The notes beneath the pieces were generated by a model. The model saw only the letters and a list, made by a program, of their open reading frames with translations. It searched no databases and was not told the DNA's origin. Below are positions 36,821 to 58,844 of a stretch of DNA of 64,000 bases, in pieces (the stretch's first letter is position 1; every line of letters begins with the position of its first letter). A program made the translations under genes and the position numbers. The stretch lies in the NCBI GenBank assembly GCA_026712715.1, contig JAPOPW010000034.1, positions 31,720-95,719 on the forward strand, given 5' to 3'. The stretch is from Immundisolibacterales bacterium (GTDB lineage: Bacteria; Pseudomonadota; Gammaproteobacteria; HK1).

Positions 36821-39349
36821 TCAATCGAAGTCGCGCGCCACCCGAAGACCGACGTTGCGATGGATGGCGTAGGCGATCCCGCTTCGATTCGCAGAACGCA
36901 TGCTCCAGGGACGATTGAGCCAGGAGCCGCCACGCAGCGTCCGGAACACGCACTTGCCGCCGAACTCCGCCGCCAGGTAGGCGCTTCCGTCAACCGGGGC
37001 TCCTTCGTAGGTCTTGCGCCAGCAATCCTCCGTCCACTCCCAGACGTTCCCGTGCACGTCGTGCAGGCCGAACGGGTTCGGGGGGAACGAGCCGACCGGA
37101 GCCGTCCGCTTCTGTCCGTCCCACTCGGACTTGCAGCCGGAACAGTTCGCCCGGCCCTTCCCCACCTTCCGGCCCCAGGAGTACCGGGAAGTCGAACCCG
37201 CCCGGGCCGCGTACTCCCACTCGGCCTCGGTCAGCAGGCGGTAGGGCTCGCCCGTCTTCCGCGAGAGCCACTTCACGTACGCGCGCGCGTCCTTCCAGCG
37301 CACACCGACGACGGGACGGCGGCCTTTTCCCCAGCCCTGATCGTCGGGGTTTCTTTTGCAGGCCCCGGCACGAAAACACGATTCCCATTCGGCGAAGGTC
37401 ACCTCGTATCGTCCCACCGCCAACGGCTCGGAGATGGATACGCGGCGCTGCGGTCCTTCGTCGTCGGAGCGGCCCATCTCCGTCCGGGGCGAGCCCATCA
37501 GGTAGCTTCCGGCCGGAACCACCACCATCTCCGGACACTCGCGGCAGTCCCGGAACGTCCGCCCGGGGGTGCGCTCCTCGGCGCGTCGCACCGCCGCGGC
37601 ACGTAGCCCGCGAATCTCCGCGGCGCCGGGACTGTCCCGATGCGACCGGAGATAGTCGTCGTAGGCAGCGACCGTGGCGACGCGAATCGCGCGCGCATGC
37701 GCCGCCCGTTCCGCGCGCCTCGCCTCTTCCCGCCGACGCTCTTCCTCGCGCCGCTTCGCCTCCGCGGCGAGCCGCTCGCGCTCCAGGCGTTCCTGAAGCT
37801 CGCGGCGGGCCGACTCCTCCCGGAGCTCCGTTTCGCGCCGGAACGCGTCGGCCAGGAAGCGTCCCTGCGGTTGCGTGAGCCGGTACTGCTCGAAGCCCTC
37901 GATCGTATCGAGCTGCTCTGCAAGCGCGAACGCCGCTTCATCCGCACGACGCTCCTTCTCACGGCCTCTTTCTTCGGCCGCGAGCCGCTCGCGGGCCAGG
38001 CGCTCCTCCTCCGCCCGGCGTGCCTCTTCTTCGGCCAGGCGCTCGCGCTCGAGCCGTGCTGCCGCGGCCACACGGGCCTCCTCGGCCCGGCGAGCGGCCT
38101 CCCGGCGCTCCGCGTCCGCCACCGCCGCCACCAGCGCGTCGACCTCCCCGCGAGTGAGAAATCCCGTCACCGGCTTGCCGTTGGCCGCCTGGTAGTCGCG
38201 GATCGCGCCGCGCGTCCTCGGACCGAACTTGCCGTCCGCGGCGCCGACGTCGAAGCCGAGAGACGCAAGGCTGCGTTGGACCATGGTCCGGTCCGCCCGC
38301 ACGAGATCCAGGGTCATCTCTCGCGCCGCCGCCAGCTCGACCGGCAGGGGCGACGTCTCGCTCGCGCCATCGGCCGGGCCGCCGGCCGCCGTTCCCGCTC
38401 CGGGCGTCTTCGATCCCTCTCGCTCGTCGCCGGCCGACTCGAGCATCGGCCGGGCTGGATACGTTCCTTCCGATGCGATCGCAACCACCGTCTCCGTCCG
38501 CCCGATGAGGCTCGCGCGCTGCCGCCGCTTGAACTTCCTCCGAACCGCCCGCGTCATGTGACGGTCGAGATACCGCTTCACCTCCCGTGCAGTCACCCGG
38601 CCGTCCTGATTCCGATCACCCTTGCCGTACAGGGCATCTAGGAGATGGTGGGTGAACGCTCCATGCCCCGCCTCCTCATCCCAGGACGCGAGTTGGGCCT
38701 TCGACGCAGCGGTCAGCACCGTGAACCGCCCGTGCGTCTGCACGGGAAGGCTCGCCTCCACGTAGACCGGCGAGGCTGAGCGAACCAGCGTCCCGCCGGG
38801 GCTGTCCCCGGAGAAGCACGCGTCGAGGTACATCGTGACCGAGCGCGCCTCCGTGAGCTTCGCGAGGTTCCCGTAGAGCACGTCGATGGGGAATCCGTTG
38901 ATCTCCGCGGTGTCGGCGTGGGCGTCCGACGGTAGCAGGTACCCCCGGCCGTCCTTCTGGCCCGGCACCCCGTGGCCGGAGTAGTAGACGACGACGTCCG
39001 AACCGCCCTCCGGATTCAGATAGCTCCAGAGATCGCCCTCGCCGCCGTGCTCGCGCTCATTGCCGAAGGTGGTTTCGAGCTCCACCTTCGTGGCGTCGCG
39101 CAGATCGATGATGTTCTCCGGGTCGTAACCGAGCACGTCGAGCACGTAGCGCTTGAACGCCTCCGCATCACGATGCGCGAAGTCCACCGACGGCACGCGG
39201 TCGTTCACGTAGTTGCGGTTGCCGACGATGACCGCGACGCCGTCCGGGTTGGCGAACTCCGCCCGCGCGGTGGCGAGGGGAGCGGACGCGGCCGCAGCGG
39301 CGGCTGCGAGCAGGACGCTCCTGGCGAGCGTGCGGACGTTCTTCACCAT
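36821..39349 (-). CDS. Secreted caspase-like peptidase (C14) + peptidoglycan-binding domain + coiled coil + SUMF1/EgtB/PvdO (FGE-sulfatase) domain protein, paralog 1
   Basis: Track ORF 36821..39637, started at ATG 39349, preceded by GGAGAG. The signal peptide ends ...ATARA/EFANP. The caspase dyad is YYSGHG (H126) and LDACFSG (C178). The PG_binding_1-like module is GAADGKFGPRTRGAIRDYQ. There is a Glu/Arg-rich coiled coil. FGE-type motifs are MVVVPAGSYLMGS, HGNVWEWTEDCW and LRGGSW. Confidence 0.85.
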   Translation of the reverse strand: MVKNVRTLARSVLLAAAAAAASAPLATARAEFANPDGVAVIVGNRNYVNDRVPSVDFAHRDAEAFKRYVLDVLGYDPENIIDLRDATKVELETTFGNEREHGGEGDLWSYLNPEGGSDVVVYYSGHGVPGQKDGRGYLLPSDAHADTAEINGFPIDVLYGNLAKLTEARSVTMYLDACFSGDSPGGTLVRSASPVYVEASLPVQTHGRFTVLTAASKAQLASWDEEAGHGAFTHHLLDALYGKGDRNQDGRVTAREVKRYLDRHMTRAVRRKFKRRQRASLIGRTETVVAIASEGTYPARPMLESAGDEREGSKTPGAGTAAGGPADGASETSPLPVELAAAREMTLDLVRADRTMVQRSLASLGFDVGAADGKFGPRTRGAIRDYQAANGKPVTGFLTRGEVDALVAAVADAERREAARRAEEARVAAAARLERERLAEEEARRAEEERLARERLAAEERGREKERRADEAAFALAEQLDTIEGFEQYRLTQPQGRFLADAFRRETELREESARRELQERLERERLAAEAKRREEERRREEARRAERAAHARAIRVATVAAYDDYLRSHRDSPGAAEIRGLRAAAVRRAEERTPGRTFRDCRECPEMVVVPAGSYLMGSPRTEMGRSDDEGPQRRVSISEPLAVGRYEVTFAEWESCFRAGACKRNPDDQGWGKGRRPVVGVRWKDARAYVKWLSRKTGEPYRLLTEAEWEYAARAGSTSRYSWGRKVGKGRANCSGCKSEWDGQKRTAPVGSFPPNPFGLHDVHGNVWEWTEDCWRKTYEGAPVDGSAYLAAEFGGKCVFRTLRGGSWLNRPWSMRSANRSGIAYAIHRNVGLRVARDFD

Positions 39350-39652
39350 GCTGTTCTCTCTCCTGCACGAAGCGGTCTGCGGCCAGGTATCCGCCTGCCT
39401 TCCGTGCAGCGGGTGGCCAGTGGAACCTCCGGTACCTGGCCCGTAAATGGAAGGTCCGGAAACCATTCTCGAAAACATCGCCTCGGGCCGCAACCGCGAA
39501 GGCGCATTCGCACGGCCCGGGCCGGGCGACGGTTCGGGCCGGACCGCGCCAGCGCGCGCGGCGGGACCGCGGGAGGGCGGCAATTTCACGCCCGTTCCTT
39601 CCATTGGCGGCACTGTACGATTACCGCATTCACTCACGAGAGGAACCGAACC

Positions 39653-40684
39653 ATGTCACAGCCCCTGCCTTCCACCGCCAGACTGCTCGGCCTCGCGGCC
39701 GTGGTGTCCTTCGCCACCGCATGCGCCACCGTGCCCCCCGCCGCGAGTGCGCAGGGCAACGTCGGCACCAACATTCCCGTGCTCGTCATGAGCGAGGACG
39801 AGGATCCGAACACGGTCAAGCGATCCAGCGACATCTTCAAGCGGGTCATCGCCGAGCTCCAGGGCTCGATGCAGCGCCACGGCTTCCGGATGATCGACGA
39901 GGAATCGGTGGCGGCCGACCTGGGCTGGGAGATTTCCGACCGGCGTCCCAAGCGCGAGCTCATCGAGTCCATCAAGCTCATGGGCAAGAGCGGCAAGGCG
40001 TCGCACCAGGTGCGCGCCTGGGTGCTGTTCCGCATCCACGCGCAGGCCAAGCAGCTCTCCTTCGCGACCAAGGTGCAGACCCGCATCGACGGCGAGCTCT
40101 ACGACGCCGCTTCCAACCAGTTCCTCGACACCTTCGAGATGCCCCGGGAGGAATATCCGGCGCCGAAGGACTGCCTGGAGTCCTCGATCTGCATCAGCGA
40201 GGTGGTGGGCGACCGCGCACGCGAGATCGCGGGCGGCCTCGGCGAGGTGCTGGCCCGCAAGCTCGAGCGCTACTCCCCGCCGCGGGCGAGCGGCGCGGGG
40301 AGCGGAACCGCGGTCACCGGCGGCTCGGGCGGCGGAACCCACACCGGCGCGGGCCACGGCATGATGACCCCGTACACGGTGACCCTGCGCTACTTCGACG
40401 ATCGCGAGGCGCTCACCATCATCGGGGTGATGGCCGACGAATTCCCCGGCTACGAGACCCACGACCTCATCAACAAGTCCGCCACCGTCCGGCGCTACGA
40501 GTACCTCACCACCGCGAAGGCGATGAAGCTCGAGGAATGGCTGTTCATCCTGCTCCGCGACATGGGCTTCGACGAGACGCGCGAGATCCTCGTCCACGTG
40601 CAGGGCACCGACATCACGGTGGACAAGCTCATCCCGACCCCGCACCGCCCGGCGTCGCCGGACGAGAAGAAGCGCTTCAACTAG
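39653..40684 (+). CDS. Hypothetical lipoprotein (two domains joined by Gly/Ser-rich linker)
   Basis: This is the C-terminal 343 aa of track ORF 38972..40684. ATG 39653 is preceded by GAGAGGAA. It has a signal peptide with a lipobox-like FATA-C. It is divergent from paralog 1 and is followed by a strong terminator. I recognised no family. Confidence 0.7.
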   Translation: MSQPLPSTARLLGLAAVVSFATACATVPPAASAQGNVGTNIPVLVMSEDEDPNTVKRSSDIFKRVIAELQGSMQRHGFRMIDEESVAADLGWEISDRRPKRELIESIKLMGKSGKASHQVRAWVLFRIHAQAKQLSFATKVQTRIDGELYDAASNQFLDTFEMPREEYPAPKDCLESSICISEVVGDRAREIAGGLGEVLARKLERYSPPRASGAGSGTAVTGGSGGGTHTGAGHGMMTPYTVTLRYFDDREALTIIGVMADEFPGYETHDLINKSATVRRYEYLTTAKAMKLEEWLFILLRDMGFDETREILVHVQGTDITVDKLIPTPHRPASPDEKKRFN

Positions 40685-40710
40685 GAAACGCGGCGACGTC
40701 CCGCCTCGAC

Positions 40711-40750: not shown

Positions 40751-41064
40751 GCTTCCACCCCCAGCGAGGCCGCGCCTCCGACCGACGACAGGGGTTCGGA
40801 GCCATCGGACGGTTCCGCAACCGCCGGCGCGTCGTGTCGGAAGCAGCCTCGTACCTCACGTACAGGACGCCGCATTGCAGACCTGATTCATCCGTGAGGA
40901 TCGGGGCCCCTCGAGGCGTCTGGAGCGGTGGTCGGCAGCGGCGGGCGAAACGGATCGGCAAATCGACCGGTTCGGGACGGGGGGACGGACTTCACTTCAT
41001 ACGCCGCGAGCTCGGGCTTGCAAACGCACCGGCGAGGCCTCATGATGAAAATCGTGCATTTTGA

Positions 41065-41600
41065 ATGCATGATTTCCACTTCCAGCGCCGGACGATCGTG
41101 AACTATATCGAGCGGTCCCTGGAGCCAATCCTCAGGCGAGCGGCAACCGAGTTTCCCGCGGTGGTGCTGACCGGGCCGCGCCAATCCGGGAAGACCGCCG
41201 TGCTGCGTCGCCTCTTCGGCGGTTCCCATCGTTACGTCTCCCTCGAACCGCCCGACGTGGGGGAGGCGGCGAGAGAGGATCCCTCGGCGGCGCCATCCTC
41301 GAGACTGCGGTCATCTCGGAGATCGTGAAGACTCTCACCCACCGGGCGATCGACCCGCAGGTGCATTTCTGGCGGACGCAGGCGGGAACGGAGGTGGACG
41401 TGGTGGTGGCGGCGCAAGGCAGGCTCGTGCCCGTCGAGGCCAAGCTCTCCGCAACGCCGCGGCCGGGCATGGCGGCCGCGATCCGGACGTTCAGGAAGGA
41501 TCTCGGGGCGGAGGCGTGGCCCGGATACGTGGTTCACCCGGGCGACGTCCGGCTGCCGCTGGGCGACGGCGCGACCGCGCTCCCGTTTGCGGACCTTTAG
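41065..41600 (+). pseudogene. AAA ATPase (DUF4143 family) with large internal deletion and frameshift
   Basis: Track ORFs 41065..41328 and 41325..41600 cover it. The N-terminal ~73 aa (FPAVVLTGPRQSGKTAVLRRLF...LEPPD...EDP) contain the Walker A. They join out of frame to the family C-terminus (AILETAVISEIVKTL...HFWRTQAGTEVDVVV...VEAKLSATP). About 250 central residues are missing. Confidence 0.7.
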
Positions 41601-41630
41601 CCCGCGGTCGGACGCGGGGCCGGGCAGGCG

Positions 41631-42419
41631 TCACTGGATGACGATGACGCCGCTCCCTCCCTTCTTGTCGTCCTCGTCCTCGTCTTCCGGCATGCGCTCC
41701 GGGGACCCGCCGCCCGGGACGCTGACGACGACGCCGTCGCCGCCGGCCCCGCCGCTCCCGCCCGACTGCGGTGGAGCCGGTGCCGGCGGTTCGGACGCCC
41801 CGGACGCAGCCCCGCCAGCCGGCTCATCGCCCGGCGCACGGTTCGCGGGCGGTTGAAAGGTGACGACCTCGACCCGCCGCTGGGCCGGATCGCCGTGGGG
41901 CAGGTCCTCGCGCGGGCGCTTCTCGCCGTGGCCCCGCACCTCGCGGAAACGGGTCTCGGCGATGGTGAAGTGCTCTCGCAGCCAGGCCGCGACCGCCTCG
42001 GCGCGCCGTTGGGAGAGCTTGCGGTTGAACTCGGCCGGCCCGCTCGAATCGGTGTGGCCGTACACCCCGATCGGTACCTGACCCAGCGCCTCCGAGACGA
42101 GCGCGGCGCCGAGCTCCCGGAGCTGGGCGACGGCGCTCTCGCCGAGCTCGGCCGAGTTCTTCCGGAACTCGACCCGGAGGTCGACGGAGCGGGTCTCGAG
42201 CGGGTCGCCGGTGATCGGGATGAGCTTGCCGACGAGGTCGTCTCGCCCCACCACCGGCACCGTGTCGCCCTCCTTCGGTGCGTCGCCGGCTGCCGCCGCG
42301 AGCGCGGGCAGCCCGCCGGCGAGGACGACGGTGAGCGCGAGCCCCGCCCGCGCCGCCGCTCTTGCGCGCGAACGGCGCCGCGGTCCGCGACGGGGGCCGG
42401 ATCGAGTGCGTGCCGCCAT
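41631..42419 (-). CDS. OmpA-family peptidoglycan-associated protein
   Basis: Track ORF 41631..42419. It has an Arg-rich signal region. The OmpA_C motifs are VEFRKNSAEL..., GHTDSSGPAEFNRKLSQRRAEAV and RRVEVV. The C-terminal tail is acidic and Gly-rich. Confidence 0.8.
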   Translation of the reverse strand: MAARTRSGPRRGPRRRSRARAAARAGLALTVVLAGGLPALAAAAGDAPKEGDTVPVVGRDDLVGKLIPITGDPLETRSVDLRVEFRKNSAELGESAVAQLRELGAALVSEALGQVPIGVYGHTDSSGPAEFNRKLSQRRAEAVAAWLREHFTIAETRFREVRGHGEKRPREDLPHGDPAQRRVEVVTFQPPANRAPGDEPAGGAASGASEPPAPAPPQSGGSGGAGGDGVVVSVPGGGSPERMPEDEDEDDKKGGSGVIVIQ

Positions 42420-42449
42420 GGTCGCTCCTCCTGCTACTGGGTGCGAGGG

Positions 42450-42911
42450 CTACTGAGCGCGCAGGACCGGCTGCGGCTCGGGCCGCCGCAGCTCGTGGTC
42501 CCGCTCGATGGACGCCACTTCGGGCATCTCGAGAAGGCGGGCGATGAGCTCACCGTCCGCGTCGAGGGCGATGACGGGGAAGAGGCTGAACGTGCGGACG
42601 GCGGCGAGCTCGCCGGCCGGCATGATCGCCGCGAGGCGCTCCATCACCCGCGCGGCGGCCCCCGTGCCCGAACCGTCCCCCACCGCGAGGTTTACGATGA
42701 TCGGCAGCTTCCCGGTCGCCGGCTGACCCGCCGCTTCCGCCGCGCGCACCGCCGCCTCCGGAGACTCCCCTTCCACTGCGGGGACCTGGCAGGCGGCGAG
42801 AAGGCCCGCGAGCAGCAGGCATGCCATCGCGTGCACCACCGCCCCGATCCCGGGAAGGCCCATGCGGCACCCGGCCTCCGGGCCGGCCGCTAACCGGTAA
42901 CGGGTTTCCAT
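42450..42911 (-). CDS. Lipoprotein resembling a stand-alone subtilase propeptide (inhibitor I9-like)
   Basis: This is part of track ORF 42450..43007, started at ATG 42911 (ATG 42863 is an alternative). The lipobox is LLAA-C. IIVNLA...VRTFSLFPVIALDADGELIARLLEMPEVASIERD follows the I9 propeptide pattern. It also parallels VTRRYENFPVLAMEMDRAALRAAKEYGGTVEVFDD in the N-terminus of the adjacent S8 protease. Confidence 0.55.
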   Translation of the reverse strand: METRYRLAAGPEAGCRMGLPGIGAVVHAMACLLLAGLLAACQVPAVEGESPEAAVRAAEAAGQPATGKLPIIVNLAVGDGSGTGAAARVMERLAAIMPAGELAAVRTFSLFPVIALDADGELIARLLEMPEVASIERDHELRRPEPQPVLRAQ

Positions 42912-43102
42912 CCCTTGCCATCCTCCGTCGGTGGGTCGGGCTGCGGCAGCGGGTCCGCCGGCGTCTGGGGCGCGCATCCGATGAGCAGGCCCGTGAGCAG
43001 CAGGCATGCGCCCAGGGCGGACCGCGCGCGCGCGCGGAGGGCGGGGGCGGGGGCGGGGGCGGGGCCTCTCGTCCCAGTCTCTAGCCGGTGATGGCCTTCC
43101 AT
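42890..43102 (-). CDS. Small Pro-rich lipoprotein (70 aa)
   Basis: Track ORF 42890..43102. The signal peptide is ...ALGACLLLTGLLIG-C (lipobox). The start overlaps the S8 gene end by 22 nt and the end overlaps the next gene start by 22 nt. Confidence 0.5.
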   Translation of the reverse strand: MEGHHRLETGTRGPAPAPAPALRARARSALGACLLLTGLLIGCAPQTPADPLPQPDPPTEDGKGWKPVTG

Positions 43103-44616
43103 TCTTTCTTCTCCTTTGCGGGTTCGGTACCTGGTCCCGGCGCGGGCTCCGGCTTGGGTCCGGGACTGCCGCCGGGCTTCGGCTCGAGGGTCAACTGCGG
43201 AACGGGCACCGCGGACGAGCCGGCCGCCGCGGGCCCGAGACGTTCGATGGCCGCGCCGACGTCGATCAGCCGGGCCGCCCGGCCGCCGCTTCGCCGGTCC
43301 GGGATCTGCGGACCGGTGCTCTCGAGCACCCGCAGCAGCTCCTCCACCGAGCTGTGGGGAGACGCCTGCTTCAGGACCGCGAAGGCGCCGGCGACGTGCG
43401 GAGCGGCCATGGACGTTCCCGGCCAGCTATCGAATCCACGCTCCAGCCGGCCTCCTCCCTCGTCCTTCACGACGGACGATTGGATGTCGACCCCGGGGGC
43501 CAGCAGGTCGAGGGTCGGTCCGCTGTTGGAGAAGGAGGCGACCTCCTTCCCCTTCGTGACCGCTCCAACGCTGACGAAGCCCTCGACGCAGGCAGGGAAT
43601 CCCACCGGCGCCGCCCGGTCTTCCTCGGAGTCGTTTCCGGACGCCACCACCACCGGGACCCCGACCTCCCGGAAGAGGCGCGATGCGAGGTCCCACACGC
43701 GCGACGGGCAGACCCCCGGCTCGTCGCGGGACGCACCCAGGCTCATGTTGACCGCTCCGATGACCCCCGGATAGCGCCGCGCGAGGGTGATGACGACGTC
43801 CAGCGCGGCGAGGATGTTCCGTCCGCTCATCCCGCGCCGGCTCCGGTTGGCGACACTGATGATGATGAGCCGAAGTTCCGGCCCGACCCCGGCGAGGTCC
43901 TCGTCCACCGCCCCCCCGAGGGCGATCCCGGCGACGTGGGTCCCGTGCGAGCCGGCCGGAAGGGCCGCGCCCGGGCCGATCATCTCGGGGCGGCCGTTCG
44001 GACAGACGTCGGCGAAGCAGGCCTCGAAGACGGTGCGGCCCGCGAGGAAGGGGTGGCGCGTGTCGGCACCGTCGTCGATGACCGCGACCGCGAGCCCCCG
44101 GCCGGCATAACCCCTCCTCCACGCCCGCGGCGCCCCCACGAGGCTCGCGCTCTCGTCGAGGAGCGGCTCGAGCACCGGGTCGTCGAAGACCTCTACGGTG
44201 CCGCCATACTCCTTCGCGGCCCGGAGCGCGGCCCGGTCCATCTCCATCGCGAGGACCGGGAAGTTCTCGTACCGCCGGGTGACCGCGACACGCGCGGACG
44301 TCCCTTCGAGGCGCTTCACGAACTCGTCGCCGGTGATCGCGACCAGCCCATTGCCGCGGCTCCCCCGGGCGGCCTCGTCGCCGGTGACGGGGCGCCACCC
44401 GGTGACGAGGGCCGACACCGTGCCATCGGACCCGGCGCTCCGAAGGAGCCGCTCGAAGTCGTCGGCGAGGGCGGGCGCCGACGACGGCAGGTGGGCGATG
44501 GCGACGACAAGGGCGGCGAGGAACGAGCGTCGGACGCGGGGACGCCATCGCCCGGCTCGGACCCTGGACTCTCCGGTGGAGGAAGCTCCCTTCGTCTTCG
44601 TCCCGTGCGCCATCAT
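43081..44616 (-). CDS. S8 family (subtilisin-like) serine peptidase, secreted
   Basis: Track ORF 43081..44766, started at ATGATG 44616, preceded by GGAGGAG. It has a signal peptide. The catalytic triad motifs are VAVIDDGAD (Asp), HGTHVAGIA (His) and GTSMAAPHVAG (Ser). Confidence 0.9.
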   Translation of the reverse strand: MMAHGTKTKGASSTGESRVRAGRWRPRVRRSFLAALVVAIAHLPSSAPALADDFERLLRSAGSDGTVSALVTGWRPVTGDEAARGSRGNGLVAITGDEFVKRLEGTSARVAVTRRYENFPVLAMEMDRAALRAAKEYGGTVEVFDDPVLEPLLDESASLVGAPRAWRRGYAGRGLAVAVIDDGADTRHPFLAGRTVFEACFADVCPNGRPEMIGPGAALPAGSHGTHVAGIALGGAVDEDLAGVGPELRLIIISVANRSRRGMSGRNILAALDVVITLARRYPGVIGAVNMSLGASRDEPGVCPSRVWDLASRLFREVGVPVVVASGNDSEEDRAAPVGFPACVEGFVSVGAVTKGKEVASFSNSGPTLDLLAPGVDIQSSVVKDEGGGRLERGFDSWPGTSMAAPHVAGAFAVLKQASPHSSVEELLRVLESTGPQIPDRRSGGRAARLIDVGAAIERLGPAAAGSSAVPVPQLTLEPKPGGSPGPKPEPAPGPGTEPAKEKKEWKAITG

Positions 44617-45067
44617 CCGGCGTCTCCTCCGTTCAACGTTCCGATTCGGTCCGGCCGCGGCCGACACACGGGTCAATGGAAGGTTCGGGAGCTCATTCTC
44701 GGAAGCCCGCCGTCGTGCCGCAAGCGAAGGGAGCTCCCCTGGAGGCCGCGAAGCGGTTTGCTCCACCGTCGTCCTCGCGAGAGGAGATGCCGGCGTGAAA
44801 CGACCGCTTCGTACTGAACCACGGTGCGTACCCGAAACTCGGAGCGCGCTTTACGCAGGGTGAAGGACAGCGGTGCAAGGACAGGTACCTTCGGGGCCCC
44901 GCTCACCGGACCCCGCAAGAACGGGGCAGGGAATCCTTGCAGCGGCCGGAGCGGCGGCGATGCGCGGGGATCCTTGAGGCAGTGAGCGTACGGGGCCGGA
45001 GTGCGACAAGTCCACCGGCGCCAAGCAATGGGCAATCGGATCCTCCATGAAAGGCAAGACTCGGGAG

Positions 45068-49495: not shown

Positions 49496-50971
49496 TCAAT
49501 CCAACGTCCTGGCGACACGAAACCCGACAACGTCGTACCGGTGCCCGGTTTCGCGCCTGTTGCGCAGCGCGGATCGCTGAACCCCCGAACTGCCGATCCA
49601 CGAGCCACCACGCAACACACGCAGATTGCAGTTGCTTCCCGTCGTCCACGCGCGACCGTCCGACGGCGCTCCCGCATAGCTCTCATGCCAGCAGTCCTCA
49701 ACCCACTCCGAGACGTTCCCCGAAACGTCATGCAAGCCATATCGGTTCGGGCTGAAGCTCCCGACCGGTGACGTATGAACATGGCCGTCATCACACGATG
49801 CATGACTCCATCCCACATCGCTGTAGCGCCGCTTCAGTGCCTGGTCCGCTCCGTTCGCATGAACGCACTGGCCGCTCTCACTGCCTCCCCAATGGTGCAA
49901 CGTCGTAGTGCCTCCACGCGCCACGTACTCCCACTCCGACTCGCTCGGCAGCCGGTATTCAGCCCCGGCCTCGCGCGAAAGCCACCGAACGTAGGCCCGC
50001 GCATCCTCCCAGCTCACGCACGCCACCGGATGCTCATCGTCCTGAACGTAGCCCGGTTGGCGCCAGCTTCGTCCCGAACGCTTCTTCCACTCGCCGCCCG
50101 CGTGCGTCCGGCATGAATCGCCTGACGAATGGCCCGTCGCCTCGACGAACCGGCGCCATTCCTCGCGCGTCACCTCGTGCACCCCCACCGCGAACGGCTT
50201 CCGAATTGTCACCCGATGCACCGGACCCTCCTCCGTGAGCCATTGCTCCCACGACGGGGAACCCATCTCGTAGCTGCCTGCCGGGACCACCACCATCTCC
50301 GGACATCCTGGACAATCCCTGAACGTCTTCCCTACCTCCAGCTTCTGTTTCGACACCTCGGCAAGCAAGACCCGGGCTTCCGACTCGTGGCGACCCCCTC
50401 GGTCCAGATACGAGCGATAGCCTCCCGGCGTGTTCAGCCGCTTCGCTTCGAAAAACGCCTCGTCGTCCGCGCGGCGCTCCGGGTCCACACGCAGGCGCTC
50501 CGCCTCGCGGGCTGCCTCTTCCTGCCCCAGCTTCGCCGCATGCGCCTCCCCGCGCGCAACCAGCGCGTCGCGGAGCTCCGCCGTCAAATGCCCCGTCGCG
50601 GCAAGACCCTTCTTCTCCTGGTAGCTCCGGATCCCGGCCCGGGTCCGGCGGCCGAACACCCCGTCCGCTCCGCCGACGTCCTCCCCGAGCGAGGAGAGAC
50701 CGTGCTGAACCAGCACCCGGTCCTCGAACGTGAGACCGAGCGACACCTCCACCGACTCCGGCGTCCGGACCGGCGCGGCCACCGGGGCCTCTTCCCCCGC
50801 AGCGGCACTCGCCGCCTCCGCCGTCCCGGGAATTTCCGCGTCGAGCGACGGGCGGGACAGAAACGCGCCTTCGAAGCTGCTCGAGCGGCTCATCGGAAAG
50901 GACGACAGCCGCCCGCGCGGGGACGGGGCGAGCGGGCGGCCCCGAGCCCGCACGCTTCTCCTTGCCTCCAT
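49496..50971 (-). CDS. Peptidoglycan-binding + FGE-sulfatase domain protein, paralog 3 (no signal peptide, no caspase domain)
   Basis: Track ORF 49496..51112, started at ATG 50971, preceded by GGGAGGGG (ATG 50893 is an alternative). The PG-binding segment is ~85% identical to paralog 2 (LGLTFEDRVLVQHGLSSLGEDVGGADGVFGRRTRAGIRSYQ). FGE motifs are present (MVVVPAGSYEMGS, SGNVSEWVEDCW, LRGGSW). Confidence 0.75.
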   Translation of the reverse strand: MEARRSVRARGRPLAPSPRGRLSSFPMSRSSSFEGAFLSRPSLDAEIPGTAEAASAAAGEEAPVAAPVRTPESVEVSLGLTFEDRVLVQHGLSSLGEDVGGADGVFGRRTRAGIRSYQEKKGLAATGHLTAELRDALVARGEAHAAKLGQEEAAREAERLRVDPERRADDEAFFEAKRLNTPGGYRSYLDRGGRHESEARVLLAEVSKQKLEVGKTFRDCPGCPEMVVVPAGSYEMGSPSWEQWLTEEGPVHRVTIRKPFAVGVHEVTREEWRRFVEATGHSSGDSCRTHAGGEWKKRSGRSWRQPGYVQDDEHPVACVSWEDARAYVRWLSREAGAEYRLPSESEWEYVARGGTTTLHHWGGSESGQCVHANGADQALKRRYSDVGWSHASCDDGHVHTSPVGSFSPNRYGLHDVSGNVSEWVEDCWHESYAGAPSDGRAWTTGSNCNLRVLRGGSWIGSSGVQRSALRNRRETGHRYDVVGFRVARTLD

Positions 50972-51162: not shown

Positions 51163-52047
51163 ATGCAGCAGTCGAGCGGAACGGGGCGCGGCATCCGGCG
51201 CGCGGCCCTCGTCCTCGCGGCCGGGCTCGGCCCGGGCGCCGTCGTCCTTCCCCTGGCGGCCGGGGCCGCGATCTACGTCGATCCGGCAACCGCCGTCGTC
51301 GAGGACCGGGCCGCCGTCCAGCGGCTGGTCGTCGCGGAGGCGGTGCGAAACGGGGTGGTCCCCGCTCCCCTCGCCCTCGCAGTGGTCGAGGTCGAGTCGG
51401 AATTCGTCCCGCGGACGGTCGGCACGTCCGGTGCAATCGGACTCATGCAGATCCTCCCCGCCGTCGCGGAGCGCGAGTTCGCGGCCAATGCGGACGCGCT
51501 CTGGGAGCCGGTGACGAACCTTCGCATGGGCCTTGGCCGCCTCGCACGACTCCACGACCGCTACGACGGCGACTGGGAGCTCGCCCTCTCGCACTTCCGG
51601 GGCGGTGAGCTGCGGCGCGAAGCCGGGCGCTACGTCGCGCACGGCTACACGCTCGGCTACGTCGAGCGGGTGATGCGCGGCTGGCGGCGCTACCAGCGCG
51701 ACCCGCTCGTTCGGGCCTGGATCCGGGGGGCACGGGGAGTTCCGCGCTTCGTCGCGGCGGATGCGCTCCCTCGTTTCGAGACGCGGTCGGCCTTGGCAAC
51801 ACCGCCGATCCGGTGGGAGAGCGCGGCGGATTCAACCCGTCCGCGCCACCATCTTCGCGGCCATCACCACCGCCTCACCGATCGGTGCGACGAGACGCAC
51901 GCGGCGCGCCGGCCGGCCGGGTACCGCTTCGGCCGCAGCGGCGGAAGCGGCGGACGGTGGACGGCGATCGAAGGTGCGCCCTCCCCTGCTCTTCGCTTTC
52001 GCGACGGCCGGTGGGTGGCGGTCACCGGCGGCCCACGCTTCCGCTAG
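51163..52047 (+). CDS. Lytic transglycosylase (SLT domain) protein
   Basis: This lies in track ORF 51112..52047, starting at ATG 51163, preceded by AAAGGAG. It has a signal peptide. VVEVESEF (catalytic Glu) and SGAIGLMQI motifs are present. Confidence 0.8.
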   Translation: MQQSSGTGRGIRRAALVLAAGLGPGAVVLPLAAGAAIYVDPATAVVEDRAAVQRLVVAEAVRNGVVPAPLALAVVEVESEFVPRTVGTSGAIGLMQILPAVAEREFAANADALWEPVTNLRMGLGRLARLHDRYDGDWELALSHFRGGELRREAGRYVAHGYTLGYVERVMRGWRRYQRDPLVRAWIRGARGVPRFVAADALPRFETRSALATPPIRWESAADSTRPRHHLRGHHHRLTDRCDETHAARRPAGYRFGRSGGSGGRWTAIEGAPSPALRFRDGRWVAVTGGPRFR

Positions 52048-52556
52048 GCTCCTTGACGTGCCCCGATCCATAAAGATGATTCAAGTTTGCAAATCGGTTT
52101 CAGGAACCGAAACGTACGAGGCTGCTACCACTACCCAGCAGCCGGGTCTTGAACCAGGATGGGTGGCTTCGAACCGGTCTCGTCGTCCTGACGCGCAGCC
52201 TCGCTGGGATTCCGGGGCGCATCGTGTTCGATAGCTCGCTATTTCCGCGACCAGGCACGGTCGAGCTTGGGCAGGATGTCGGCCTCTCCCGCGGGCTCGT
52301 TCCGTCCGTGCCCCGGCACGAACACGGAAGGCGCGGCGGTGATGGTGCGCCCGAGAACCAGCGTCCCGGCGGCCGAGGAGACACTGCGCCGAGGCCGCCG
52401 GCGCTCGGTTGCCTCTTCCGGTTCGCGGCACGCCCCGAAGGCCCGGAGCGCGCCCTCGATGCGCGAATGCCCCTGCCGTTCGGTCACGGGGGCAATCTTT
52501 GCAGTGCGCGTGCGAGCGCTTATTCTCCGGCTTTCGGCGAGAGGCGGAGAGGGTGC

Positions 52557-54353
52557 ATGGGCGAGAGGGCCAGGGTCCGGCTCATCCGGGGCGCGCAGAG
52601 CGACGAGCTGCGCGCGACCTTCCGCCAGCTCGCCGAGCTCGACGGACCGAACGGTCCGAAATTCCCGCGACGGGTCCTCATGGAGCTTGCGGCCCGGATC
52701 GTGGGCCGGGCCTACGAGCCGATGCTGCTCGAGCTCTCCCACCTCGCGCGCGCCGCCCGGCTGGCAACGCAGGGGCTGCCGGGAGGGCGGCGCGGCGCGG
52801 ACGCAGGGGCCGGCTTCGAGTGGCTCTTCTGGGGCGTCGAGGAGGCACGGGCCGGTGCGTTCCGGGCCGCCTTCCTCGAATCGAACGGCACCTTCGCGAG
52901 CCCCGCCCCACCTCCGGCGACCCATGACGACGAGGGCCGGTCCGGCGCGGCGGGCGGCGCGCTCCGCATCGGGGAGGACGGCGTCATCCTCAGCTACCCG
53001 GACGGCCGGTTCGAGCTCCGGTACGGACGCATGGTGGACCTCGCCGCAATGATGGAGCTGCTCGTCTCCACCCTCGGCTACCGCGCGCTCGTCGATGTCC
53101 TCGATCCGCTCGCGGCGCCCGTCGTCGACCGCGGGACGGTCGCGGGAGCCGCCCGCGACCTCGCCCGCCGGTTCTACGAGTGGCTGGGCGGCCATCTCCC
53201 GACCGCCCAGGCGCAACGCAAGTTCCACGCGATGATCGCGTTCCTCGAAGAGTCGCTCGGGGCCGACTTCACGGACGAGGACATCGACGACGAGGCGGTC
53301 CTTCGCTTCTGGCTCCGCCAGGTTGCGCCCGCCGGCGGCGAGACGCCGGCGGGCGGCGCGGGCACCGACTTTCGCGGCTACCGCAACACCTTCCTCGCCT
53401 TCCTCGCCCTCGCCCGGGTGCTCGAGGAAGGGGCGGAGCGCGGGCGCTTCGAGCGGCACGTGTCGATCGGCTCCGACTTCGAGGCGGGGGAGATTGACCC
53501 TGCGGCCGAGTCCGCGGCAACGCCGGAGGGCGCGGCCGAGTTCGACCCCCTCGCGCTGCTCCAGGAGGAGCCGGCCGCCGTGATCAAGGCGCTCAACCAG
53601 CGCGAGCTCACCCTCCTCCGGCTCCCGGTCGGAGAAAACGACGGGGTGCGGCGCCTGCCCCGCTCGTACCTGCGGGCCGAGTGCTTCGGTCCGGTGCAGA
53701 ACCGCCTGTCGCAGGCGCTACGCCGCAAGGCGGGCGCGGCGGAGCTCGCGGCGGTGGTCGCGGCCGGGCCGGATCCGGGCTATCGCGCCCGGATCGAAGC
53801 ACTGAAGAAGGCCGACGTGCACGTGCGCCGGGTGGCCAGGGCGTGCCTCTTCGTCCTGCACCGGATGGGGGGCGACGCGGGCGGCGGCGGCGGCGAACGC
53901 GACCGCGGACGCGCGAAGACCGGCCCCGGCGAGGGAAGCGAGAGCGGCGTCGGGCCGGTGCTCGACTTCCGGCTTCTCGGGGAAGCCCGCAAGGCATTCG
54001 AAGGACTGAACCGCGCGGGCTTCGAGCGCTCCGCCCCGAGCGACCCCGAGCTCGCGCCCGCCTACGGCGCGCTCGCGGACACCTTGCCGTGCGTCGCCGA
54101 ACGTCTGGGGGCGGTCCTTCTCACCTTCGGTCCGCCGGACTCGTGGGAGCGCGCCGAGGCGGAGGATCGCGCGGTCTTCTCGCGCACCTTCGCCCGGCTC
54201 TACGGCGCGGCGACGAACGAGCCGCCGCCGGAACCGGACGGGGAGGCGCGAGGACGCGGTGGCGCTTGCAGCACGCGCGGCGACGGCGGACCGATCCGGT
54301 CGCCGCCCCCGCCGCGCACGAGCCCGGCACGACCGGCGGGAGGACGACCATGA
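52557..54353 (+). CDS. Hypothetical protein (598 aa), no recognisable domain
   Basis: This lies in track ORF 52149..54353, starting at ATG 52557, preceded by GGAGAGGG. It has coding-like GC3 bias and an acidic/helical composition. It is translationally coupled (ATGA) to the next gene. Confidence 0.6.
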   Translation: MGERARVRLIRGAQSDELRATFRQLAELDGPNGPKFPRRVLMELAARIVGRAYEPMLLELSHLARAARLATQGLPGGRRGADAGAGFEWLFWGVEEARAGAFRAAFLESNGTFASPAPPPATHDDEGRSGAAGGALRIGEDGVILSYPDGRFELRYGRMVDLAAMMELLVSTLGYRALVDVLDPLAAPVVDRGTVAGAARDLARRFYEWLGGHLPTAQAQRKFHAMIAFLEESLGADFTDEDIDDEAVLRFWLRQVAPAGGETPAGGAGTDFRGYRNTFLAFLALARVLEEGAERGRFERHVSIGSDFEAGEIDPAAESAATPEGAAEFDPLALLQEEPAAVIKALNQRELTLLRLPVGENDGVRRLPRSYLRAECFGPVQNRLSQALRRKAGAAELAAVVAAGPDPGYRARIEALKKADVHVRRVARACLFVLHRMGGDAGGGGGERDRGRAKTGPGEGSESGVGPVLDFRLLGEARKAFEGLNRAGFERSAPSDPELAPAYGALADTLPCVAERLGAVLLTFGPPDSWERAEAEDRAVFSRTFARLYGAATNEPPPEPDGEARGRGGACSTRGDGGPIRSPPPPRTSPARPAGGRP

Positions 54354-55093
54354 GCAGGCCGTGGAGCGCAAGGAGCGAGGCGGAACGAAAACGAATGGAG
54401 GCGGCGTTCGTGGCCCGCCACGGCGCCGAGATGCTGCTCGACGGCGATTCGGAGCCTCCGCCCGCGACCGGAGACGAGTTGCCGCCCGGAACGCTGCGTC
54501 CGGGCCGCCGACTTCCCTTCGCGCACCTCCACGCGTCCCTGCGCGGTGGCCGGCCGCTGCCGCCCGAGGTCTCGGCCGCGCTTCGATCGGACCCCGCGCT
54601 CCGCGACGACTTCGCGCTCCTCGTCCGCCGGAGCGCCCGCCAGCACCTGCCGCGCGCGGCCGCCGCGGCGGGGCGTGAAGGCATTCTCCGGCGCGAGGCG
54701 GGGGGGTTCGTCGTCCGCCTCGTCGCGTCGCGGGCCGGCCGCGACCAGGTCTACCTCCTCGTCGAGCTGCCCGAGGAGGTGGCCGCGGAGGCACAGGTGC
54801 GGGCAGGACCGGATGCAAACGGTTCCGGGCGCCAGCCGGCGGAGGTTCGGGCGGCTGACGACCGGATCGGCGGGGACCCCGCGCCCGACGCGGCGGGCGG
54901 AACGCCCCCGCCCGCCGCCCGACGCGCGGCGCCTGCCGCACCGGATCGGATGGTCGTGCGGACCGCGGACGGGGAATTCCTGAAGCAGGCCCTCCCGTCG
55001 CCCGAAGACCGCACCGTGCGACTCGTGATGGAGGCGGACGACCCGCTGATACGGGCGGTGGCCGAACCCGCGAGCGAGATCTATCTGCTGTGA
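54350..55093 (+). CDS. Hypothetical protein (247 aa)
   Basis: This lies in track ORF 53681..55093. ATG 54350 is preceded by GGGAGGA and overlaps the upstream TGA. I recognised no family. Confidence 0.55.
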   Translation: MSRPWSARSEAERKRMEAAFVARHGAEMLLDGDSEPPPATGDELPPGTLRPGRRLPFAHLHASLRGGRPLPPEVSAALRSDPALRDDFALLVRRSARQHLPRAAAAAGREGILRREAGGFVVRLVASRAGRDQVYLLVELPEEVAAEAQVRAGPDANGSGRQPAEVRAADDRIGGDPAPDAAGGTPPPAARRAAPAAPDRMVVRTADGEFLKQALPSPEDRTVRLVMEADDPLIRAVAEPASEIYLL

Positions 55094-55259
55094 GGGCCGC
55101 CGGCGAGACGACACTCCGCCGCCGCGGCGGACGGGACGCCGCGGTGCGCGAGTCCGGGCCGCGCGAGGCCGGCCGGAGTCCGCCTGCCGGATTCGGGGTG
55201 CCGCGGGGCACGGCCCCGCGCCGCTCTTCCGTCCGCCGCCGCCGCGAACGAAGCCGCGC

Positions 55260-56882
55260 GTGAACCGGATCCGGGTGTTCATCGCGACCACGGAGGGGCC
55301 GGTTGCGGTGCAGAAGATTACCGCCGAGGACCCGGACGTTCCGTCCGTCGCCTGCCGCGACGGCACCACCGAGGTCCTCGCGATCTCACGCGACTACACC
55401 CGCTTCGTCGAGCGGGGCACCGGCCTGGTGGCGGCGCTCACCGGCCACGGCGCGTACCGCCTGGATCTGGACCGGCCGGTGGACGGCGGGCGGAGCTGGC
55501 AGCTACCGGTGCTGCTGGCCCACCTCCTCGAGGCCGAGGGGCGCCTCGCGGGGCCGGACGAGCCCGCCGACCTCGCGCTCCTCGCGACCGGGGAGGTCGA
55601 CCGCGATCAGCGGGTGCGGCGGGGCGGCCGGATCCCCGAGAAGCTCGCCGCCGCGAACGACCTCGTCACCCGGCACCGGCAAGCCGGCCCGCCCCTGGTG
55701 GTGCTGGTGCCGGCGGCGGATCGGACACCCGCGATCGATGCGGCGCCGCCGGCGCCGGGCGGCGACTTCGAAGGCATGGTGTCGGTGCTCGCCTGGGAGC
55801 GGGTCATGGGTCTCACCGACCTCGAGGCGGCGCCGGCGGGCCGGTTGGCACCGCATGCGGGACGGGCGCCGGGCGATGCCCCGGACCCGCAAGCGGGCGC
55901 GGGCGGAGGCGCATCACGCGCCGTCCCGAAAGACGCCGCCCGGCGGGCGGCGGAGAGCGGCACGGGCAACGGCTCGCATCGCGGCCCCACCGGCGACTCC
56001 GGGGACGTGGACGCTCCCCCGCGCCGGCCCGCGAATCCGTCCACGCCGTCACGAGAGCACGCCGCCGCCGAACCGGACCCGGATCCGGTTCCGGCCCCGC
56101 CGGGCGGAGCGGCCGCCGCACGCCCCCGGCGCCGGACGGGGCGGACGGCCACCGCGATCCTTCTCGTCGCGGCAGTGGCGGGGGCAGCGTCCGGAGCCGC
56201 CTGGTGGAACGGCCCGCGGGACTGGGAGATGCTGCGTCGCGCGGGAGACTACGAGGGTCTCGAACGCGCCCTCCGGCAGTCCGTCGTCGCTCCCCTGGCC
56301 GATCGGTACCGGTCCGGACTCCTCGCCGGCGCGCCCGCCCCGGAGAGCCTCGTCTTCAGCCTCGTGGAGCAACGGACGGCGGACGGGCAGCCCTGCGATC
56401 CGGGCGGCTTCCGCGACGCGGACCGCACGGAGCGCGCCCGCCTGGCGGGGACCCCCATGCCCCCCCTCAGGCCGGGGTTCTTTCGCTCCGAGGGGGGCGC
56501 GAGCCTCTGCCGGGCGGTGTATCGCGTCGCCAACGAGGGCGAGCGGCTGGTCTACGTCTACTTCGCGGTCCGGCCGTCGCTCTCGTCGGCGGCCGGCAAG
56601 GCGGAGGCTCCGGCGGTCCGGCGCGCTGCCGCCCTCCCCCCCGGCGCGAGCCTCGCTCTCGACCTCGACCTCGACCTCCGGCTCTTTCGGGACCGGATTC
56701 TCGGTGCCGACCTGCTGGTCCTCGCCGCCCCCAGCCCGTCCCCACAGATTCGCCACGCATTCGAGCTCGCGTCGGAGGCCGGCGCGGGGAGCCGTGCACG
56801 GGGGGCGGCTCCGCTCGATCTCACCGCACTGCCCGCGCTCGGCCTCACCGTCAAGGGGGCGAGCCACGCCATCCTGCGGTAG
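55260..56882 (+). CDS. Membrane protein with N-terminal Lon-protease-like (S16 fold) domain, one TM helix and a C-terminal extracytoplasmic domain
   Basis: Track ORF 55260..56882 (GTG start). PVDGGRSWQLPVLLAHLL...LLATGEVDRDQRVRRGGRIPEKLAAAN...VVLVPAAD parallels Lon_C (DGPSAGIA...AMTGEITLRGxVLPIGGLKEKLLAAHR...VLIPxxN). The TM helix is TATAILLVAAVAGAASGAAWW, around aa 300. Confidence 0.55.
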   Translation: MNRIRVFIATTEGPVAVQKITAEDPDVPSVACRDGTTEVLAISRDYTRFVERGTGLVAALTGHGAYRLDLDRPVDGGRSWQLPVLLAHLLEAEGRLAGPDEPADLALLATGEVDRDQRVRRGGRIPEKLAAANDLVTRHRQAGPPLVVLVPAADRTPAIDAAPPAPGGDFEGMVSVLAWERVMGLTDLEAAPAGRLAPHAGRAPGDAPDPQAGAGGGASRAVPKDAARRAAESGTGNGSHRGPTGDSGDVDAPPRRPANPSTPSREHAAAEPDPDPVPAPPGGAAAARPRRRTGRTATAILLVAAVAGAASGAAWWNGPRDWEMLRRAGDYEGLERALRQSVVAPLADRYRSGLLAGAPAPESLVFSLVEQRTADGQPCDPGGFRDADRTERARLAGTPMPPLRPGFFRSEGGASLCRAVYRVANEGERLVYVYFAVRPSLSSAAGKAEAPAVRRAAALPPGASLALDLDLDLRLFRDRILGADLLVLAAPSPSPQIRHAFELASEAGAGSRARGAAPLDLTALPALGLTVKGASHAILR

Positions 56883-57098
56883 CGCGTCCGGCCGTGCCGT
56901 CGCCCCATCCTGCATCGGCGGCGCGGAAAGAGCGGGGCAGTGAGGCAGCGGGGCGGCCTTCCGTACGGGATGGGTGGCCGGGCGGCGGTCACTGGGGATG
57001 GGCGCGCGTTGAATCCCGCGGGCCCGACCGGGCCGGGCCGGTGAGGGCCGGATGCCGTTTGCGGAACCGGCCTGCCACGACGCGCCGCGGTCGCCCCG

Positions 57099-58844: not shown

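Follow-up and report, generated by a model that had tools for sequence, protein, structure and literature searches.

The window analysed here is the whole 64,000-nt stretch of contig JAPOPW010000034.1, part of a 5.06-Mb assembly of 82 contigs (97.9% complete) that is designated G000 in comparisons with same-genus genomes (G001–G006), and its central feature is a cluster of four paralogous caspase-like genes, P1–P4, two of which are intact and encode predicted secreted proteases with a C-terminal lectin-fold domain. Since the window has a G+C content of ~70%, lists of open reading frames (ORFs) were noisy, and genes were chosen by third-position G+C and then checked against profile libraries. 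Domains were called from Pfam matches above gathering cut-offs, together with NCBIfam, PADLOC, and PDB sequence and fold searches, and export signals of window proteins were read by eye from the N-terminal sequence. A first-pass annotation of this DNA had proposed the four minus-strand ORFs as paralogs; all four are where it placed them and translate without stops. The genes and their variable-region-like segments are as follows.

36821–39349 (−), P1, intact: signal peptide, predicted Peptidase_C14 domain (His124/Cys176), PG_binding_1, Glu/Arg-rich coil, and PvdO-like lectin-fold (FGE-sulfatase) domain
36851–36919 (−), variable-region-like hypervariable segment of P1, flanked by RGGSW and GLRVA
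45068–47287 (−), P2, intact, with a syntenic ortholog in G004: signal peptide, predicted Peptidase_C14 domain (His142/Cys194), PG_binding_1, and PvdO-like lectin-fold domain
45098–45169 (−), variable-region-like segment of P2
49496–50971 (−), P3, 5′-truncated: PG_binding_1 and a "long-type" lectin-fold domain, without signal peptide
49526–49597 (−), variable-region-like segment of P3
57099–58844 (−), P4, lectin-fold domain lost: signal peptide, predicted Peptidase_C14 domain (His125/Cys177), PG_binding_1, and two short helical repeats

The Pfam scan (Peptidase_C14, PF00656, cut-off 21.4 bits; FGE-sulfatase, PF03781) gave scores for Peptidase_C14, PG_binding_1, and FGE-sulfatase of 47.6, 47.6, and 186.6 bits in P1, and 44.3, 36.7, and 177.8 bits in P2; P3 matched PG_binding_1 (41 bits) and FGE-sulfatase (216.7 bits) only, with no Peptidase_C14 match, and P4 matched Peptidase_C14 (48.8 bits) and PG_binding_1 (43.5 bits) only, in exact agreement with the domain subsets annotated earlier. 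The relatedness of the four is far above chance, with caspase domains 63–69% identical to that of P1, and DNA repeats of 60–82% identity connecting the genes. The histidine of SGHG and the cysteine of DACFSG, reported as an intact dyad for P1 and P2, are present in P1, P2, and P4, and both catalytic residues are retained in 42 of 42 close carriers in a genus-level census; with the profile match and the dyad both present, these three proteins are predicted C14 peptidases. At their N-termini, basic residues are followed by a hydrophobic run that ends in A-R-A or V-R-A ahead of EFANP, and the signal peptides proposed for P1 and P2 (a hydrophobic N-terminus with an A-x-A-like end before EFANP) are thus visible by eye.

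The differing domain subsets do not, in the case of P3 and P4, reflect design, and these two genes are truncation derivatives. The N-terminus of P3 aligns, in the family alignment, with the final residues of the paralogs' caspase domain, so P3 is a 5′-truncated copy that has lost signal peptide and protease. P4 stops after the two short helical repeats that precede the lectin-fold domain in P2 and P3, and G004 has pseudogene fragments including caspase and lectin-fold pieces at the syntenic position, which together identify P4 as a 3′-truncated copy. P3 is also a mosaic, in which the DNA of the PG-binding and linker regions shares 82% identity with P2 and the lectin-fold domain is of the longer subtype common to other paralogs. 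The family is not confined to the cluster, and six C14 genes of the P1–P4 type and nine FGE-domain genes are scattered across the G000 genome. Stand-alone and Sel1-fused secreted lectin-fold paralogs were seen on G000 contigs C66, C68, and C8.

The C-terminal domain of P1–P3 had been assigned to the SUMF1/EgtB/PvdO type, and the fold part of that assignment stands. The domain matches PF03781 at 178–217 bits and formylglycine-generating enzymes (FGEs) in the PDB at E ~1e-21; its best profile match is PvdO (NCBIfam NF051459), at 244.5 bits against an equivalog cut-off of 500 bits, which places it outside the PvdO equivalog. PvdO is also its closest solved relative (PDB 5HHA, E 7e-56, full length), and TvpA (PDB 2Y3C), a variable protein of a diversity-generating retroelement (DGR), matches as well (E 1e-10 to 1e-18). 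A PDB profile search with the whole caspase-lectin alignment returned lectin-fold relatives alone, so no closest solved caspase is named. The hallmark of FGE is a copper-binding catalytic cysteine pair, C-x4-C, after GGS[WY]. By alignment, the segment after RGGSW in P1–P3 contains no cysteine and the CxxxxC pair was not found, so the domain is not a plausible FGE. A separate G000 gene (contig C21:95033–95827, minus strand) keeps the C-x4-C motif (LKGGSYLCHPDSC) and is a probable true formylglycine-generating enzyme.

In an alignment of 18 copies of the lectin-fold domain from G000 and relatives, the domain is well conserved save for 23–24 residues between RGGSW and GFRVA, which are 42–54% identical in pairs whose remaining domain is 88–92% identical. 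This hypervariable segment has an active retroelement counterpart in G001, where contig C417 carries, in order, a bAvd gene (71.5 bits), a reverse transcriptase (RT) gene (58 bits, motifs IGNLTSQ and YVDD), a template repeat, and a 1061-aa caspase-lectin gene. The template repeat is an Asn(AAC)-rich copy, ~120 nt long, of the RGGSW...GFRIA segment. Aligned to the 3′ end of the adjacent caspase-lectin gene, it has mismatches at 18 of its 33 adenines and at 2 of its 87 remaining bases (Fisher p 1e-10), and aligned to a second paralog, which lies beside an SLT-Y-Y2-Z gene set like that of the window, at 12 of 33 adenines and 2 of 87 others (Fisher p 2e-6). The pattern is, as read from the sequences, the diagnostic signature of mutagenic retrohoming by a DGR, and the Avd-RT-template cassette of G001 is predicted to act by adenine-specific mutagenesis on the 3′-terminal ~100 nt of at least two paralogs.

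The same template, which is heterologous to G000, mismatches P2 at 21 of 33 adenines and 14 of 87 other bases (Fisher p 9e-7), and P3 at 20 of 33 and 13 of 87 (Fisher p 2e-6), and four G004 copies show the same adenine-biased behaviour. Since the DGR of the sister genome acts on paralogs and the adenine signature is kept in P2 and P3, the C-terminal domain is predicted to be a PvdO-like C-type-lectin-fold domain of the type targeted by DGRs. Traces of the retroelement extend to other carriers: a bAvd gene lies directly 3′ of a caspase-lectin gene at two loci of relatives (L014 and L020), although a direct-repeat scan beside the L014 Avd gene gave no template/variable-region repeat, and G004 has two stop-containing or fragmentary Avd remnants, one of them directly after a caspase-lectin gene, with no RT there. 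On the G001 contig, a stop-to-stop ORF of 1861 codons was also noted, with the DGR target gene on one side and a DUF4384-like gene on the other (locus L040, 3032–8617, minus strand); it has no match to the cluster proteins used as queries, and may be spurious given the very high G+C content.

G000 itself has lost RT, Avd, and template. No RVT_1 (PF00078) or bAvd (PF22296) profile match was obtained from the genome, tblastn with the G001 RT and Avd proteins gave no match and the L014 Avd query no remnant, no copy of the template repeat was found in G000, and the intergenic gaps of the window hold no DGR remnants. Window DNA is present in six sponge metagenomes, with no RNA dataset among the sequencing runs listed as containing it, and the variable segments were compared with contigs from four sponge metagenomes other than the likely source sample. 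The segments of P1, P2, and P3 showed zero differences in the covering contigs (three of the four metagenomes per segment), and the ongoing diversification of a DGR target was thus not seen in these contigs; since contigs cannot reveal rare variants, this demonstrates fixation of the major allele only. With no RT, Avd, or template in the genome and with identical sequences across sponge metagenomes, the variable segments of G000 are frozen. Many short contigs of foreign organisms, at 5–15× the local depth, were observed in all four metagenomes on the conserved lectin-fold core (37034–37567 and 45044–45577), so relatives of this domain are seemingly abundant in the sponge community.

The remaining features of the cluster and its flanks are listed below; X, Y, Y2, and Z are working names.

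34672–35469, ECH gene, left flank of the island
35470–59736, strain-variable genomic island between the ECH and DUF1989 genes
35975–36574 (−), DinB-family gene within the variable interval
39650–40684 (+), family-less lipoprotein of 344 aa, lipobox ...FATAC
41325–41600 (+), DUF4143 fragment of 91 aa, a gene remnant
41631–42419 (−), OmpA-like peptidoglycan-binding protein with signal peptide
42450–43007 (−), X, small lipoprotein, lipobox LLAAC, weak likeness to subtilase pro-peptide/Inhibitor_I9
43081–44766 (−), S8 subtilase, Asp/His/Ser motifs intact, start codon uncertain
47355–49214 (−), DUF4384-like exported protein, Pfam match below cut-off
51163–52047 (+), SLT-family lytic transglycosylase with signal peptide, first gene of the SLT-Y-Y2-Z operon
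52557–54353 (+), Y, cytoplasmic protein of ~600 aa with no known family
54395–55093 (+), Y2, small family-less protein, always between Y and Z
55260–56882 (+), Z, predicted cytoplasmic Lon-protease-like domain (Ser79, Lys128), one transmembrane helix (~aa 296–314), and periplasmic C-terminal domain
59018–59634 (−), PIN toxin (59018–59392) and Phd/YefM antitoxin (59389–59634), right edge of the island
59737–60333, DUF1989 gene, right flank of the island

The gap between the ECH and DUF1989 genes measures 44–190 bp in G002, G003, and G005, 6.4 kb in G006, 60 kb in G004, and 24.3 kb in G000, and the cluster is therefore an accessory, strain-variable island of ~24 kb. Of seven further same-genus genomes searched, three gave matches to the caspase family, G003 being one of them with only a distant match (29% identity). 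In G006, the interval holds a DinB gene beside DUF1989, plus unrelated genes and no caspase cluster, and the DinB gene is probably part of an older gene set of this locus and not a component of the system. The G004 interval (loci L011–L012, C1:2120001–2160000) contains, between caspase-lectin paralogs, two IS66 transposases, rve integrases, a large serine recombinase, Mu/Tn7-like genes, an AAA_22 protein, and an Opp-type peptide ABC transporter. Taken together, the genus presents a decay series, from an active DGR (G001), through Avd remnants with pseudogenes (G004) and frozen, truncated copies (G000), to the empty site (G002, G003, and G005).

At the right edge of the island, the Phd/YefM antitoxin (38.8 bits) overlaps the start of the PIN toxin, and a PIN gene also follows Z in the distant relative L014; G000 has at least four further PIN paralogs. 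The ORF at 41325–41600 matches the last 35 positions of DUF4143 only, and is a remnant of an AAA-ATPase-associated gene. An element of ~165 nt occurs as an inverted pair 11 kb apart (40760–40925, plus strand, and 52040–52210, minus strand), and was considered as the ends of an 11-kb transposon; this was rejected, the element being a genome-wide dispersed repeat with more than 50 copies (70–85% identical, often as two half-elements) on more than 30 G000 contigs. The syntenic 60 kb of G004 contains no copy, and the element resembles a dispersed intergenic repeat of the miniature inverted-repeat transposable element or repetitive extragenic palindrome kind.

The first-pass annotation had surrounded the caspase genes with a DUF4384 protein, an S8 protease, an OmpA-like protein, lipoproteins, and a lytic transglycosylase, and all but the first of these were borne out. 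The S8 protein is a subtilase by profile (PF00082, 149.8 bits) and by triad (VIDDG, HGTHVAG, and GTSMAAP motifs), the transglycosylase (PF01464, 59.3 bits) has its Glu-Ser pair in a VESEF motif from residue 77, and the OmpA-like protein and two lipobox proteins are present. The DUF4384 match reaches 20.2 bits against a cut-off of 27 bits, and a search of this protein against PDB sequences gave nothing meaningful. The broader claim that nearly every product acts in the periplasm or on peptidoglycan fits most of the genes, which are exported or envelope-located, but not Y, Y2, DinB, Phd/PIN, or the DUF4143 fragment, none of which has an export signal, nor Z, which is a bitopic membrane protein. 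X resembles the pro-region of S8 proteases (BLASTP E 0.019; Pfam Inhibitor_I9 E 0.042, below cut-off), a weak likeness, and is conserved beside S8 in G004 and at loci L014 and L015. The lipoprotein at 39650–40684 has no Pfam, NCBIfam, or PDB match, and is 86% identical in G004 and 74% in L015, near the cluster in both. The lipoprotein, X, S8, DUF4384-like, SLT, Y, Y2, and Z genes are single-copy in G000.

The core of the cluster recurs in relatives. In G004, it is found in inverted synteny, with identities of 86% for the lipoprotein, 74% for the OmpA-like protein, 48% for X, 73% for S8, 59% for the DUF4384-like protein, 62% for SLT, 66% for Y, 60% for Y2, and 62% for Z, and the P2 ortholog is 78% identical in the caspase domain and 61% in the lectin domain. 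Orthologs of the DUF4384-like gene adjoin caspase-lectin genes in G004, L014, L020, and G001. Reading genomic contexts outward from Z homologues, several metagenome-assembled genomes (labelled Gammaproteobacteria, Pseudomonadales, or Candidatus Azotimanducaceae) were found to carry SLT-Y-Y2-Z with one to three caspase-lectin genes, and in most of these the lipoprotein, the DUF4384-like gene, and S8 with X are present too, with protein identities of 40–65% and no fixed gene order. The neighbourhood comparison that had been suggested for relatives thus shows a core that is syntenic in a same-genus genome and present in other genera, and not an accident of one genome. PADLOC returned its generic "caspase" and "subtilase" models only, without a hit to Y, Y2, Z, X, the DUF4384-like protein, or the lipoprotein; searches of the island genes with Pfam, NCBIfam, and PADLOC revealed no NTPase, vWA, or adaptor domain.

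Y, Y2, and Z, which follow SLT in one operon (51163–56882; in relatives at loci L014–L031, overlapping start and stop codons were noted), have no family match in any profile library searched, and make up a cytoplasmic and membrane arm of the cluster that the first-pass annotation had not noted. In the census of 36,145 genera, Z was found in ~81 genera, mostly Alphaproteobacteria, with a C14 gene within 10 kb in 9 of the 81 and at none of the random control places; counting from the best C14 match instead, a Z gene is present within 10 kb in 6 of 39 close carriers, none of 255 distant carriers, and no random place. The linkage between C14 and Z is therefore real, but not obligate. Public records label the same-genus genomes "Gammaproteobacteria bacterium", the closest caspase-subfamily and Z carriers in the census are Alphaproteobacteria, and one of the Z loci comes from an Acidobacteriota-labelled bin; the lineage's class assignment, or some of the binning, is doubtful.

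Z consists of an N-terminal domain of ~200 aa, a linker, a transmembrane helix, and a periplasmic domain, and its first ~190 residues are strongly conserved. An AlphaFold2 model from 21 sequences (pLDDT 70, pTM 0.73) was searched with Foldseek against the PDB, and the top 50 matches listed were all Lon proteolytic domains or Lon-like domains of RadA/ComM (best E 4.5e-5, TM-score ~0.45–0.5); structure neighbours in the ESM Atlas agree with a Lon-like fold. Ser79 is kept in 60 of 60 carriers and Lys128 in 57 of 57, and their motifs resemble, by eye, the Ser-Lys dyad of Lon (S16), in which the two residues are likewise ~49 residues apart. Unlike Lon, Z gave no match to an AAA+ module or to Pfam Lon_C, its sequence profile found no Lon in the PDB, its TM-scores are modest, and it has a transmembrane helix and periplasmic domain fused to the Lon-like part. 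The N-terminal domain is thus predicted from the model to be Lon-protease-like, and Z is not a member of the Lon family. Since arginines precede the transmembrane helix (positive-inside rule), the Lon-like domain would be cytoplasmic and the C-terminal domain of ~220 aa periplasmic. For Y, which has 418 representative relatives, a confident AlphaFold2 model was obtained (pLDDT 85, pTM 0.82), and its fold gave no Foldseek PDB match at E ≤ 0.001, no PDB sequence-profile match, no usable ESM Atlas lead, and by VIA-align only generic helical-bundle matches (Z-score ≤ 7.5), with no P-loop-fold match.

Proteins of the P1 and P2 kind have described counterparts. Cyanobacterial orthocaspase-CLec proteins are DGR variable proteins, which often have paralogs with no DGR beside them (Vallota-Eastman et al. 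2020, PMC7517822); they share the N-terminal C14 domain, the C-terminal lectin fold, and diversification of the last ~100 nt by a DGR. Those proteins are mostly predicted to be cytosolic, whereas the family described here has a predicted Sec-type signal peptide and PG_binding_1, lies with S8, DUF4384-like, OmpA-like, and SLT-Y-Y2-Z genes, and in G000 lacks the DGR. Work on predicted conflict systems has also described DGR-diversified CLec/FGS domains as "antigen sensors" (Kaur et al. 2020, PMC7159879; Dore et al. 2024, PMC10907252, and preprint), and there too the FGE-type lectin fold is always C-terminal, caspase, trypsin, or S8 domains serve as effectors or neighbours, and targets are duplicated and in some cases predicted to be periplasmic. 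Such systems centre on STAND or MoxR-vWA NTPases and adaptor domains, whereas none was detected in the island, which has other conserved partners.

Of the single proteins, PvdO is, like the domain of P1–P3, an FGE-fold protein without the FGE cysteines, and acts in the periplasm in pyoverdine maturation, but it is stand-alone, conserved, and encoded in pyoverdine loci, whereas the domain here is fused to a protease and has a hypervariable C-terminal segment. TvpA of Treponema denticola has the FGE subtype of the C-type-lectin fold with a variable region at the extreme C-terminus, as here; unlike the P family, it is a surface lipoprotein without a protease or peptidoglycan-binding domain. The lectin-fold DGR variable protein Mtd of Bordetella phage is a tail-fibre protein and likewise has neither. 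A survey of prokaryotic caspase homologues listed the pairing of metacaspase with FGE-sulfatase in 33 of 671 sequences, and peptidoglycan-binding partners in 11 (Asplund-Samuelsson et al. 2012, PMC3501461); the second domain was read as a formylglycine-generating enzyme, with no link to DGRs and no neighbourhood system. A limited literature search (open-access subset) found no paper that joins DGRs with Peptidase_C14 by that name. Since caspase-lectin DGR proteins are known from cyanobacteria and predicted conflict systems (PMC7517822, PMC10907252, PMC7159879), the earlier statement that C14-FGE fusions have no assigned function overstated their novelty. The general principle is already known, and what is new is the secreted, peptidoglycan-tethered form without an NTPase, its conserved partner set, the decay series within the genus, and the SLT-Y-Y2-Z operon.

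We read the cluster, with a probability of roughly 0.6, as a periplasmic, NTPase-independent counterpart of the DGR-diversified conflict systems that join a lectin sensor to a peptidase effector, here in a post-DGR and partly eroded state. In such a system, P1 and P2 would be secreted by Sec and held on murein through PG_binding_1, and the hypervariable groove of the lectin-fold domain would bind a changeable periplasmic ligand, for which incoming phage or toxin proteins and foreign or host glycans and proteins are candidates. Binding may then bring the caspase-like protease to its substrate or activate it. Accessory processing could be carried out by S8 with its I9-like partner X and by the DUF4384-like protein, and the most likely candidate to link events in the envelope with the cytoplasm is SLT-Y-Y2-Z, by way of the cytoplasm-facing Lon-like Ser-Lys domain of Z.

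Several observations weigh against this reading. PADLOC has no system-level match for the cluster, the adenine signature in P2 and P3 is indirect, being measured on the heterologous G001 template and not on a template of their own, and the localisation is based on signal peptides judged by eye. Of the 39 close C14 homologues, 33 have no Z nearby, and SLT-Y-Y2-Z mostly occurs without a nearby C14 gene, in alphaproteobacterial (Rhodospirillales-type) loci among housekeeping genes, so the tie between the operon and the caspase-lectin genes may be positional only. The frozen variable segments and truncated copies could also mean that the system is non-functional in G000. A bolder version, to which we assign a rather low likelihood, is that the cluster represents an undescribed, NTPase-free, immune-like surveillance of the periplasm, in which murein-tethered caspases with DGR-diversified lectin receptors would sense phage or toxin proteins or glycans, act together with S8/I9 and the DUF4384-like protein, and relay through SLT-Y-Y2-Z and the Lon-like protease of Z to the cytoplasm, with SLT-Y-Y2-Z, taken separately, being a new transenvelope proteolytic signalling operon of ~80 genera.

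The strongest competitor, which we consider possible but somewhat doubtful, is that the clustering is largely positional, the ECH-DUF1989 interval being an integration hot-spot with unrelated cargo and SLT-Y-Y2-Z being independent of the caspase-lectin, S8, and DUF4384 genes. The different cargo of G006 and the IS66, rve, serine-recombinase, and Opp-transporter genes of G004 are what such a hot-spot would hold, alphaproteobacterial SLT-Y-Y2-Z stands alone among housekeeping genes, and the pairing is limited to the 9 of 81 Z-carrying genera and 6 of 39 C14 carriers given above. That pairing nevertheless recurs in six distinct caspase-lectin loci (four complete, two partial) from several genera despite rearranged gene order and protein identities of only 40–60%, it was never seen at random control places, and a DGR also targets the G001 paralog beside SLT-Y-Y2-Z. 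A peptidoglycan-anchored proteolytic cascade, or an envelope-stress or programmed-death module, built of fixed enzymes (caspase, FGE-type modifier, S8, and SLT) without variable recognition, would account for three hydrolase classes (C14, S8, and SLT) and three peptidoglycan-binding modules lying together, mostly with export signals and in an arrangement conserved in relatives, and the variable segments are indeed fixed in G000. It is quite unlikely. The catalytic cysteines are missing from the "FGE" domain, and in relatives this domain is the target of a DGR, so that the family is defined by its recognition of a changing ligand; moreover, some members of the genus do without the island, which would not be expected of a housekeeping function in the envelope.

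Colonisation rather than defence would be the purpose if the caspase-lectin proteins were surface or periplasmic adhesins, or host- or microbe-recognition factors of a sponge symbiont, like the DGR-diversified lipoproteins TvpA and LdtA, with the protease processing proteins of hosts or neighbours. The window DNA is indeed present in the six sponge metagenomes, similar lectin-fold sequences of other community members occur at high depth in the same samples, and the DGR variable proteins of Treponema are lectin-fold surface proteins, of which TvpA is a detectable relative; PG_binding_1, together with the lack of a lipobox and of an outer-membrane or secretion signal, points to the periplasm rather than the surface, and the neighbours (S8, OmpA-like, SLT, and bitopic Z) are internal to the envelope, so that we give this explanation little credence. 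Still less can be said for a catalytic lectin-fold domain, acting as a PvdO-like or FGE-like oxidative maturase of a secreted metabolite or protein such as a siderophore chromophore or a sulfatase, which we regard as highly improbable. The full-length similarity to PvdO and the FGE-sulfatase scores would suit it, but the PvdO score is about half of the equivalog cut-off, the FGE cysteine pair is absent, the island has no pyoverdine or sulfatase genes, and the segment that forms the substrate groove in FGE is here the hypervariable, retroelement-rewritten part, which is incompatible with a conserved active site.

The reading of the cluster as a lectin-sensor and peptidase-effector system bears on annotation beyond this locus. 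"Caspase-FGE" fusions, listed since 2012 as a protease with a sulfatase maturase, would in this lineage at least be a protease with a DGR-made hypervariable receptor, which corrects a common annotation trap around "FGE" tails. The theme of diversified lectin sensors with peptidase effectors is extended to a secreted, peptidoglycan-tethered form lacking NTPase hubs, and its partner set (S8/I9-like, DUF4384-like, lipoprotein, and SLT-Y-Y2-Z) is now testable, while the frozen and partly eroded copy in G000 tempers the direct experimental value of the window.

Outside the island, a plus-strand ORF of 2044 aa was observed at 12087–18221, with two UvrA-like units (UvrA DNA-binding and interaction domains, and several ABC/P-loop motifs), and it looks from these domains like a giant UvrA paralog.

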